From Patescibacteria group bacterium (GTDB taxonomy: Bacteria > Patescibacteriota > Patescibacteriia > JAXHNJ01): DNA of 64,000 bases. Location of the stretch: positions 282,303 through 346,302 of the forward strand of contig JAXHNJ010000002.1 of assembly GCA_034520665.1 (NCBI GenBank), given 5' to 3'. Under the pieces are notes generated by a model. It had not been told where the DNA came from and ran no database searches. It saw only the letters and a program-made list of their open reading frames with translations. The position numbers and the translations under genes were made by a program. Of the stretch, positions 51,322 through 53,483 are shown piece after piece (the stretch's first letter is position 1; each line of letters starts with the position of its first letter).

Positions 51322-51480
51322 TTTATAAAAAAGCCTCCAAAAGTGAGGCTTTCAATAATAATCCAAATTATGATGTGTCGGTTGCGCTACTTGCTTCTTG
51401 TAACCAATACTCTCTTTAGATAAGAAAGAAAAGCGCCCAAATTTTGATTACAATTCAAAGCCTCACTAGCTTTATTCTAA
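51322..51480 (-). ncRNA. Candidate structured leader or sRNA, copy B
   Basis: A TTGACA-17-TAAAAT promoter (51487-51515, minus strand) drives a conserved ~125 nt body. The terminator is AAAGCCTC-N7-GAGGCTTT plus TTTTTT. Confidence 0.4.
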
Positions 51481-51540
51481 CAATTTATTTTATTTCTTTT
51501 AAATTATTTTGTCAAATAAAAAGTATCATTAACCTAAAAA

Positions 51541-51565
51541 TAGGGCTAATATTAGCCCTATTTTA
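51541..51565 (-). terminator. Copy of the rpoC terminator palindrome
   Basis: The sequence AATAGGGCTAATATTAGCCCTATT is present. Confidence 0.5.
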
Positions 51566-51584
51566 TATATAAATATATTTTTTA

Positions 51585-51805
51585 TTTAAGTTTTACGATA
51601 GCCAGTACCAGCCGGGATTAATTTACCAATAATTACATTTTCTTTCAGGCCTCTGAGTTTATCAACCTTGCCAGTTATAGCTGCGTCAATTAATACCCGA
51701 GCTGTTTCCTGAAAAGAGGCTGCTGACAAAAAGCTTTCCGTACTCAAAGAAGCTTTGGTAATACCCAGTAATAAAGGTTTAACTTTTGCTGGTTGTTTAT
51801 TTTCT
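51585..51805 (-). pseudogene. Orphan duplicate of the last ~215 nt of rpoC fused to the ftsK start codon (chimeric scar)
   Basis: It is near-identical to 53539-53755. The fusion ATG-GCT-AGA-AAA-AAG... runs into rpoC sequence out of frame and reaches a stop after ~24 codons. Confidence 0.7.
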
Positions 51806-52126
51806 TTTTTCTAGCCATATGGTTCTTATATTTTACCACTTTTGTCCCTCTTGGCAATAAAAAAAGGTAATGTGCACAGACATATGGCGGTTTTCTAGGG
51901 TAAGTATTACCCTAGATAATATGTGTATAAATATGTTAAAAACAATTAAAGAGAAAAATTAAAACGTCTAAAACCTATTATTAAAAAGTTTAGGAAGATA
52001 AATAGCTAATTATTGAAATAGAAGTTAAAAATTTAATAATAATCAAATTAAGTTAATATACTAGAAAAATTAAGATACAAAATTAGCTTATAAAATATAT
52101 ATTATAATAATCTATTACATTATATT

Positions 52127-52165
52127 TTAAATAAAAAAGTCCTGCTAGCAAATCTAGCAGGACTT
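52127..52165 (-). terminator. Intrinsic terminator of cassette 2
   Basis: A perfect 11 bp stem (AGTCCTGCTAG-N5-CTAGCAGGACT) is followed by TTTTTTATTT on the minus strand. Confidence 0.7.
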
Positions 52166-52172
52166 ATAACTA

Positions 52173-52379
52173 CTACACTTGTTGCTTCTTTTTTATATAA
52201 AACAAACAAGTGGAAAAAATGATTAAGGAAAGCAAATAATAAGGTGACAATTGAGAATATGCAAATGTTACCCCAATAGCCACACCTAGAAAAGTAACGA
52301 TAAATTTTTTGCCAGCTATTCGCTGGCTTATATAGATACCCAATATAATACATACTATTAATAATATAATATTTGGCAT
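52173..52379 (-). CDS. Small 2-TM membrane protein (68 aa), distal gene of cassette 2
   Basis: A GGAG RBS lies 5 nt before the ATG. Two hydrophobic helices are present. Confidence 0.55.
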   Translation of the reverse strand: MPNIILLIVCIILGIYISQRIAGKKFIVTFLGVAIGVTFAYSQLSPYYLLSLIIFSTCLFYIKKKQQV

Positions 52380-52433
52380 CTTATCTCCTTTCTAATTTTA
52401 ATAAAAAATACTAAAACTATACAGAAAAAATTA

Positions 52434-53159
52434 TTAATCGCCAAATATTATATCATCAGCCGCATGGGAACAGAGGCCACCGACTACTCCGGCAACAATA
52501 AGATTACCACCTGTTCCACTACCAGCTGCTGCTCCACTAGCCCCATCAACAACAACAGTAACGGTAAATCTAAGTAATCTCTTACCCCATCCTCTTAATA
52601 GATTACGACTATCAATTTTTATATTGGGGATTTCTTCAGCTGAATGACGAGTAAGCCAAAATTCAGCTGAGTGAATACTTATATCACATAAACTGTATAA
52701 TATTGTGCCTGGCTTAGGAGCTCCATACTTAGCACACATATTTTTGTAGATTAGATCTAAATTTACTGCTGTAGCCTCATTACTAAATCTATCCCACCAC
52801 TTATACTCTTCTGGAGATAGAATAGATTTTACTAATTCTATAGGGTCTTGTTTGGCCATATTACGTCCTCGCTCAAGAGCTTCTCGCACTTGCTCACGAG
52901 TCAAGGGATCCTGATTATACTTATCCGTAATTTTTTTAGCCTCTTGGTAAAGTATCTCCTCCTCCTCTAAGGCTGTGGTCTTCATAAGATTTGAAGAATT
53001 TTCATCAAGCTCATTATATACATTGGTAAGAAATTCATTATGAATTTCACCAATACCCCTGTTTGTAACATCAGCTTCCGGAGAAATTACATTTTCTCCT
53101 TCACATCCAAAAAGAAAAAATAAACTGAAAATTACAAAAACTAGACTAAGATGTTTCAT
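52434..53159 (-). CDS. Secreted lipoprotein (241 aa) with a C-terminal Gly-zipper-like hydrophobic segment, cassette 2
   Basis: It has the lipobox LFFLFGCEG. A GGAGGT RBS precedes the start. The C-terminus reads GASGAAAGSGTGGNLIVAGVVGGLCSHAADDIIFGD. Confidence 0.6.
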   Translation of the reverse strand: MKHLSLVFVIFSLFFLFGCEGENVISPEADVTNRGIGEIHNEFLTNVYNELDENSSNLMKTTALEEEEILYQEAKKITDKYNQDPLTREQVREALERGRNMAKQDPIELVKSILSPEEYKWWDRFSNEATAVNLDLIYKNMCAKYGAPKPGTILYSLCDISIHSAEFWLTRHSAEEIPNIKIDSRNLLRGWGKRLLRFTVTVVVDGASGAAAGSGTGGNLIVAGVVGGLCSHAADDIIFGD

Positions 53160-53269
53160 TTTTTACCTCCATAAAAAATGAATAATTAAACGAATTCATA
53201 ATTAAGAGATTCTCAGATATAAATCTCTATATCTAGAAAAATTTACCTCCTTCCTTTTTCAAAGTTCAA

Positions 53270-53433
53270 TGTTATAAAAAAGCCTCCAAAAGTGAGACTT
53301 TGAGCTGTAGTCAAGTATTTGAACTGGGTGTCGGTTGCGCTACTTGCTTCTTGTAACCAATACTCTCTTTAAATAAGAAAGAAAAGCGCCCAAATTTTGA
53401 TTACAATTCAAAGCCTCACTAGCTTTATTCTAA
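53270..53433 (-). ncRNA. Candidate structured leader or sRNA, copy A
   Basis: A TTGACA-17-TATAAT promoter (53440-53468, minus strand) drives the transcript. The 5' segment AGTGAGGCTTTGAA is complementary to the left arm of the 3' terminator hairpin (53277-53301), so it could act as an anti-terminator. Confidence 0.45.
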
Positions 53434-53483
53434 CAATTTATTATATTCCTCTAAACTAAAATTGTCAAATAGTTAATACACAT

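Follow-up and report, generated by a model that had tools for sequence, protein, structure and literature searches.

What controls the two gene pairs that lie between rpoC and ftsK in a patescibacterial genome, each behind a nearly identical RNA leader? The DNA analysed here (the window) is a stretch of 64,000 nucleotides (nt) with a GC content of 34.5%, taken from contig JAXHNJ010000002.1 (positions 282,303 to 346,302; assembly GCA_034520665.1) of a Patescibacteria group bacterium. Positions are counted from its first letter, and all features described are read on its minus strand, from high to low coordinates. A preliminary description made from the letters alone had proposed a riboswitch- or attenuator-type leader. 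This idea has held: both leader bodies match the model of the class II riboswitch for cyclic di-guanosine monophosphate (c-di-GMP-II) over its full length, and the fold covaries among relatives. We put the probability at roughly three in four that each element is a complete c-di-GMP-II-class transcriptional riboswitch, with ligand binding as a prediction from its sequence. The leaders are diverged members of a known riboswitch class, not a new kind of RNA. We infer c-di-GMP as the ligand, and likewise the sign of the regulation and the start and end of the transcript.

Both leaders begin at near-consensus sigma-70 promoters, as described before. Promoter A (TTGACA-17-TATAAT; 53440..53468) matches the consensus at 12 of 12 positions and promoter B (TTGACA-17-TAAAAT; 51487..51515) at 11 of 12, and a promoter scan ranked them as the two best sigma-70-like sites of the region. 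Transcription would start near 53433 in copy A and near 51480 in copy B. The copies share 111 of 112 nt (99.1%) over the segment that starts at the -10 box and closes with the aptamer. This conserved body is followed in both copies, again as noted earlier, by an intrinsic terminator with a U-run. Terminator A, AAAGUCUC-ACUUUUG-GAGGCUUU and then U's (53276..53301), was found by direct reading and by folding with the aptamer enforced; terminator B, AAAGCCUC-ACUUUUG-GAGGCUUU and then U's (51327..51352), was found by direct reading and folding. The right-hand sequence GAGGCUUUUUU after the ACUUUUG loop is common to both. Their stem is 8 bp long with GCCUC/GAGGC at its core, the loop has 7 nt and a U6 run follows; the stem is retained in seven leaders with 6-8 of its 8 pairs. 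A simple terminator scanner listed neither of the two, probably because part of the U-run is taken up by three A-U pairs of the stem. The start codon lies about 115 nt past the terminator in copy A and about 56 nt past it in copy B, close to the 60-110 nt first estimated. A degenerate core pattern matched twice in the window versus 0.00 matches expected, and our own covariance model found exactly two copies there, with 97.4 bits for copy A and 97.3 bits for copy B, while the next match scored 15 bits.

Following a suggestion in the preliminary description, we scanned 2.4 kb against Rfam in E-value mode, and both bodies matched the c-di-GMP-II family RF01786 over its full length (model positions 1-84). 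Aptamer A (53320..53426) scored 44.7 bits (E = 6.1e-8), and its core extends from the 5' G of helix P1 at 53419 to the 3' C of P1 at 53328. Aptamer B (51368..51474, core 51466..51375) also scored 44.7 bits (E = 6.2e-8) and differs from aptamer A by a single nucleotide, in the loop of an extra hairpin. RF01786 was the best member of its clan at both sites, and none of the GAG/GCG variant models reached its own gathering score. The pseudoknot of aptamer A pairs the loop GGGCGC with the 3' partner GCGC-AA-CC, and the kink-turn between P2 and P3 retains its 3-nt bulge and first G.A pair. According to a review (PMC7288161), ligand contacts in the PDB structure 3Q3Z include U37, G39, C68-A74, A13, A14, U60 and A61. 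The motifs UUGGG and CAACCGA of the window copies are identical to those of the consensus and of canonical copies; mapped by motif, UUGGG would hold U37 and G39, and CAACCGA would correspond to C68-A74. At the P1/P2 junction, the window copies keep the conserved G-A ahead of P2 as well as the A of AGU (3Q3Z numbering is approximate here), and every clade member has an A on the 3' side of its outer P2 pair.

Several observations weigh against this assignment. At the gathering threshold, Rfam reported nothing at either leader, and the 44.7 bits of the window copies fall under the curated RF01786 cut-off of 53.5 bits. P1 has only 3 bp (GUG/CAC) in the window copies. The outer P2 pair is G.A, not G-C, in all seven clade members, and the second kink-turn pair of the window copies is A.A, not A.G. 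The short P1, the G.A pair or the A.A pair could weaken or alter binding. The A.A pair recurs in the relatives L010 and L016, with A.G in L005, L008 and L015, and it occurs at the same position in some known kink-turns (PMC4316175, table). In the RF01786 alignment, 25 nt are inserted behind the pseudoknot loop of the window copies, and their P1 is weak; we attribute the score shortfall to the short P1 and the inserted hairpin. This lineage-specific hairpin (CUUUCUU-AUUUA-AAGAGAG; 53363..53381) is inserted into the loop of P3, immediately 3' of the nucleotides that form the pseudoknot. It was found with differing sequences in L005, L008, L010 and L015 and is absent from L016; within the clade it measures 24-32 nt and varies in sequence while its stem is retained.

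The same deviations raise the question whether the scaffold has been retained for a different ligand, as a specificity variant that binds another cyclic dinucleotide or a related nucleotide. The G.A pair fixed in the clade (7/7) and the 3-bp P1 adjoin the P1/P2 junction, which holds four of the 3Q3Z contacts given in that review (A13, A14, U60 and A61; PMC7288161). Moreover, the window scores lie under the curated cut-off, and the Rfam clan includes variant families of this scaffold. However, every column that is invariant in canonical aptamers is retained in the window copies, including CAACCGA and UUGGG, and RF01786 outscores the other clan members with no variant family at its own cut-off. 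Homologous genes elsewhere stand behind canonical c-di-GMP-II aptamers, and one clade member (L008) scores above the cut-off. A change of ligand is therefore unlikely in our view, and c-di-GMP remains the predicted ligand.

Relatives were sought with the degenerate core pattern in genome and metagenome collections. The genome collections yielded five loci, among them one class II match (L005, 48.7 bits); the other four (L001-L004) have no class II match and are probably chance hits. L003 carries a c-di-GMP-I riboswitch (RF01051), which was found by chance. The metagenomes yielded nine loci, with a riboswitch match in only three: L008 (56.2 bits, above the cut-off of 53.5), the GC-rich outlier L007 (51.1 bits) and L010 (44.6 bits). 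L015 (47.6 bits) and L016 (48.6 bits, with the canonical length of 84 nt) also match RF01786. Two scans of viral contigs gave no match and hence no sign of a phage vector. In L005, L008 and L010 the riboswitch comes after the 3' end of rpoC, and L005 shows the full synteny of a single unit: rpoC, riboswitch, a 227-amino-acid (aa) gene, a 74-aa gene and ftsK.

We aligned 12 aptamers (alignment A3), namely seven of the window clade, the GC-rich outlier L007 and four canonical ones (67-77 bits). With the class II structure including the pseudoknot, 96.7% of the cells were paired, versus 26-50% when the partners were slid. A count of compensatory changes, which had been suggested for the two copies and was made here across relatives, gave 12 of 20 pairs and supports both the fold and the pseudoknot. 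For four of five measures, none of 500 shuffles attained the observed values. P1 was 100% paired with covariation in two of its three pairs, and P3 was 99% paired with covariation in seven of eight. For P2 the figure was only 80.6%, owing to the G.A outer pair of this clade. All six pseudoknot pairs were 100% paired, two of them with compensatory changes; the interrupting AA is invariant, and the variants GGGCGC/GCGC, GGACGC/GCGU and GGACAC/GUGU illustrate the covariation.

This conservation also bears on whether the aptamer could be a decayed, non-binding remnant that persists as a leaky-terminator leader or as the source of a stable RNA of about 155 nt. The score under the threshold and the weakened kink-turn and P1 would fit such decay, and a unit running from promoter to terminator would yield a discrete small RNA. 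Yet the core is conserved with compensatory changes in at least six independent genomes, the switch helix described below is kept while the linkers diverge, and a co-oriented gene follows the element in every locus. We therefore give decay hardly any credence, the least of all the explanations considered. The preliminary description had mentioned a stand-alone small RNA as the alternative to a leader; we do not favour it, because in all seven loci the terminator is followed by a co-oriented gene with a ribosome-binding site.

How would a functional aptamer control the genes behind it? Both copies and their homologs were folded with ViennaRNA, as had been suggested. In all seven leaders, the free minimum-free-energy fold is a long 5'-3' helix (-36 to -57 kcal/mol), in which GUGAGGCUUUGAAyyGUAAUC, comprising the 5' strands of P1, P2 and P3, is base-paired to the linker and to the terminator's left arm. 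The terminator hairpin formed in 7/7 leaders when the aptamer helices were enforced, and only then. The mutually exclusive terminator and anti-terminator folds put forward earlier are thus found in every homologous leader. The complementarity between the 5' segment and the left arm, on which that proposal was built, is real but imperfect: AGUGAGGCUUUGAA pairs with CUCAAAGUCUCACU in copy A with one G-U and one end mismatch, and with UUGAAAGCCUCACU in copy B with one mismatch. In both copies, this pairing continues into a helix of 21 nt, in which 19 positions are paired. In copy A, the 5' strand (GUGAGGCUUUGAAUUGUAAUC; 53399..53419) is made of nucleotides that also serve as the 5' strands of P1, P2 and P3, and the 3' strand (GACUACAGCUCAAAGUCUCAC; 53292..53312) overlaps the left arm of the terminator. 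In copy B, the 3' strand (GAUUAUUAUUGAAAGCCUCAC; 51343..51363) has its 5' partner at 51466..51446.

The anti-terminator pairing recurs in 7/7 sequences with 17-19 of 21 positions paired, or 87.8% versus 32-46% when slid. Although copies A and B have no more than 50% identity in their linkers, each linker makes 19 of 21 pairs. One position covaries from U-A to C-G, its P3 partner changing too. Less favourable to the proposed switch, the covariation of this helix was not significant in the shuffle control, with one pair changed on both sides; we ascribe this to the fact that most columns never vary. The anti-terminator is hence supported by conserved complementarity and not by formal covariation. 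Canonical copies in L025 show the same arrangement, with the left arm of the terminator complementary to the 5' strand of the aptamer (AAUGAGACGU / ACGUCUCAUU).

Based on these folds, the following mechanism can be envisaged. The strong sigma-70-type promoter would start an mRNA whose first ~110 nt fold as a class II aptamer, with a P1 of 3 bp, P2 and P3 joined through a kink-turn-like bulge, a pseudoknot and the extra hairpin; the terminator would come some 25 nt later. If no ligand is present, the weak aptamer would open and its 5' half would pair with the linker and the left arm as the anti-terminator, so that the polymerase could read into the two-gene cassette. With c-di-GMP bound, the pseudoknot and P1/P2 would be locked and the left arm would be free, such that the terminator forms and an RNA of about 155 nt is released, as in an OFF switch. 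Since the only conserved competitor for the left arm is the 5' strand of the aptamer, stabilisation of the aptamer should favour termination. Most likely, then, the folding model would have each riboswitch shut off its pair of secreted-protein genes when c-di-GMP rises.

The sign of this response is the more debatable part. The characterised class II examples of Clostridioides difficile are ON switches that activate expression, which speaks against an OFF switch here; the OFF logic is therefore a prediction from structure. One could accordingly imagine that c-di-GMP is sensed with another logic, either as an ON switch or by control of translation or mRNA stability. The regulatory sign is predicted from thermodynamic folding, and an anti-terminator that invades from about 100 nt away is kinetically demanding. 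On the other hand, the terminator is a self-contained hairpin whose left arm has no other conserved competitor than the aptamer 5' strand, the canonical copies of L025 share the arrangement, and the start codons lie 56-115 nt past the terminator, outside the switch helices. We see only a slim chance for a different logic, and transcriptional termination upon binding of c-di-GMP remains our preferred prediction.

A further point that may speak against c-di-GMP as the input concerns its synthesis: no GG[DE]EF motif was found in open reading frames of at least 80 aa in the 64-kb window, which covers only about 9% of the ~0.7-Mb genome and so says little about the whole of it, and no diguanylate cyclase domain was found among the 18 proteins scanned with Pfam. 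Diguanylate cyclase genes have been reported in ultra-small metagenome-assembled genomes (MAGs; PMC9938205). We had also considered a 6S, transfer-messenger (tmRNA) or signal recognition particle (SRP)-like RNA, or an RNA-gene integration site, an idea that had come from the long 5'-3' helix and the duplicated rpoC end; it was dropped given the aptamer match and the switch logic.

Each cassette is predicted to code for an exported protein (200-250 aa) together with a small one (about 65-80 aa). Gene A1 (52434..53159) encodes a lipoprotein-type protein of 241 aa (MDZ7798755) with a predicted helical domain and a conserved C-terminal glycine-rich helical hairpin, and gene A2 (52173..52379) a hydrophobic small protein of 68 aa; the terminator of the unit is at 52165..52137. 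Gene B1 (50665..51270) encodes a protein of 201 aa with a signal peptide (MDZ7798754), for which the structure model was unusable (pLDDT 38), and gene B2 (50471..50668) a small protein of 65 aa with a signal peptide, followed by the unit terminator at 50437..50412. Pfam and NCBIfam contained no family for any of the four cassette proteins.

Homologues of the cassette proteins connect them to the riboswitch class. Two loci with cassette A homologues (P0008 and P0009) have tandem canonical c-di-GMP-II riboswitches of 67-77 bits, and a third (P0011) has a riboswitch that is cut by the contig end. Cassette B homologues are 86% identical in a Krumholzibacteriota MAG and 59% identical on a Gram-negative-type contig, and both are preceded by the same riboswitch type (47.6 and 48.6 bits). 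Against a fixed association, no riboswitch was found upstream of the cassette A homologues P0007, P0017, P0018, P0022 and P0024; the link between gene and riboswitch is therefore frequent, not obligatory. Some cassette A homologues that lack the riboswitch (L018, L030 and L033) lie near sigma-54 activator or HTH_8 genes, which hints at a different mode of control for this family.

The cassette A family comprises 23 clusters. Its C-terminus is strongly conserved (VVDG..G...G..GG.V..G.VGGL.SH.ADDI.FG; alignment A6), and in most but not all cases the next gene encodes a small protein of 65-80 aa. The cassette A protein and its small partner are reminiscent of a membrane-inserting effector with its partner.

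Why are there two copies? The riboswitch units are placed between rpoC and ftsK, and this genome has two of them. Downstream of rpoB (60821..57408) and rpoC (57396..53539, then a hairpin terminator at 53517..53490), unit A comprises promoter, leader, 241-aa gene, 68-aa gene and terminator. It is separated from unit B (promoter, leader, 201-aa gene, 65-aa gene and terminator) by about 70 nt copied from the start of ftsK (its promoter and first codons), a dead rpoC end and a copy of the rpoC terminator. The intact ftsK (50384..48093) follows, with a RodZ-like gene and recA beyond. The two riboswitches are thus about 1.95 kb apart, each with its own promoter and its own gene pair.

At the duplication junction (51586..51860), this copied start of ftsK runs out of frame into the dead rpoC end. 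The ftsK copy (original at 50345-50410) includes 44 exactly identical nt (51843..51800), the dead rpoC copy consists of the last ~218 nt of the gene, and the copied rpoC terminator hairpin lies at 51585..51534. The ftsK 5' and rpoC 3' parts meet in about 10 nt of microhomology (AAAAAGAAAA), which suggests illegitimate recombination that duplicated the whole inter-gene unit.

Identity between the copies was calculated segment by segment (53222-53756 versus 51274-51803). The rpoC 3' fragment (98.2%), the rpoC terminator region (98.1%) and the 5' leader with the aptamer (99.1%, 111/112) were nearly identical, the terminator was 90% identical, and the promoter (68.8%), the linker (50%) and the downstream region (54%) had diverged. 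This mosaic is unlike that of a simple recent duplication and suggests later cargo replacement, gene conversion or recombination with another allele. From the contrast between differing promoters and a conserved body, selection on the RNA had been deduced. The contrast itself stands (68.8% versus 99.1%), but the deduction from it is weak: the dead rpoC fragment is 98.2% identical too, and with a pseudogene fragment as conserved as the body, identity between two copies alone is no proof of selection. The real evidence for selection on the RNA comes from the other genomes.

We also asked whether the second copy could be an assembly artefact, with two strain variants of a single rpoC-ftsK locus stitched in tandem. 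Relatives have a single unit, and an independent short-read assembly (Logan) from the same organism (SRR26473340; L035, 1-260) ends inside the aptamer, as a repeat or strain variation would cause. On the other side, a microhomology of ~10 nt would not suffice for a k-mer mis-join and is of the kind typically seen with illegitimate recombination, and the window sits on a 698-kb contig. The Logan sequence is 100% identical to the window over the linker, terminator and gene start of copy A, and confirms the copy A linker as the neighbour of the cassette A gene; the riboswitch repeat is what breaks short-read assemblies. An artefact is very unlikely, and both riboswitch sequences are real either way, as only their adjacency would be in question.

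Unit B has a close counterpart in another phylum. From the promoter to the end of the 201-aa gene, it is 90.9% identical at the DNA level over 820 nt to an island in a Krumholzibacteriota MAG (GCA_034520215.1, contig JAXHNR010000002.1 of 1 Mb; L015, 5750-6603). The island has a GC content of about 35% versus 47-62% in its flanks, and adjoins genes for DUF3800 and a PemK toxin. The high identity and the low-GC island together point to a recent inter-phylum transfer as the probable explanation. This near-identical unit offers a clue to gene flow between phyla, and possibly to a pairing of host and symbiont. It is tempting to go further and regard the promoter-riboswitch-gene unit as a mobile c-di-GMP-responsive cassette that moves between Patescibacteria and their possible Gram-negative hosts, with an rpoC-ftsK hot-spot and swapping of cargo. 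The 91% identity to the Krumholzibacteriota island and a second such pair (L005/L016) form the basis of this idea, which we regard as speculative and rather improbable. In its most daring form, an episymbiont that makes no c-di-GMP of its own would read that of its host and time its secreted interaction proteins by it.

Some further elements were noticed near the riboswitches of relatives and elsewhere in the window. About 180 nt upstream of the L016 riboswitch (5560-5700) lies a repeated fragment resembling the acceptor and T-arm of a tRNA or tmRNA (TGGTGCCGGAGGTGGGA...); ARAGORN found no complete tRNA in it, and it could be the remnant of an integration site. L008 has a second promoter-like site between rpoC and the riboswitch (100-300), followed by a GC-rich element of about 170 nt that is closed by GAAGCCGGGG/CCCCGGCUUUC and a U-run; this element gave no Rfam match and a folding z-score of only -1.4. 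Within the window, a weak match to the ssNA-helicase RNA motif (RF03070; 51891-51927, plus strand; 28.9 bits versus a cut-off of 41.5) corresponds to a hairpin within the AT-rich spacer that separates cassette A from the duplicated ftsK promoter. At 39782-39827 (minus strand), a histone 3'-UTR stem-loop (RF00032) was reported with 37.8 bits versus a gathering score of 34; in a bacterial genome, this match is almost certainly spurious and due to a terminator-like hairpin.

Gene regulation in the ultra-small Patescibacteria (the Candidate Phyla Radiation) is almost unstudied, and our literature search found no paper on a natural c-di-GMP riboswitch in this group. The riboswitch would provide a testable input, c-di-GMP, with two secreted-protein cassettes as its output, and the element is a possible natural part for inducible expression in Patescibacteria. 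The clade also shows how far class II aptamers can drift while keeping their core, and that the Rfam cut-off misses such members. If the OFF logic is true, a repressing design would be added to a class best known for activation. The interest of the locus hence lies in the host phylum, in the drifted sub-threshold architecture and in the putatively mobile promoter-riboswitch-gene unit.

The closest known systems include RF01786 with its structure 3Q3Z from Clostridium acetobutylicum. The window elements share its P1-P2-P3 layout along the full-length match, its pseudoknot with two bulged adenosines and its UUGGG and CAACCGA motifs, and the leaders here also precede genes for secreted or surface proteins. 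They differ from the norm of the family in their score of 44.7 bits, the 3-bp P1, the G.A pair in P2, the A.A kink-turn pair, the 24-32-nt hairpin and the patescibacterial host. The c-di-GMP-II riboswitches of C. difficile, such as the one upstream of pilA1, share the aptamer class and the intrinsic terminator; these are reported to be ON with c-di-GMP, whereas OFF is predicted here. The c-di-GMP-I riboswitch (GEMM-I, RF01051) has the ligand predicted here and the same kind of regulon, but an unrelated fold, and the window elements show no match to it. Tandem c-di-GMP-II riboswitches have been described as 59 doublets and 9 triplets (PMC9481103). Cassette A homologues elsewhere have two complete riboswitches one after the other, both equipped with a terminator and built on the same switch design, whereas the two riboswitches of the window are not in series on one mRNA.

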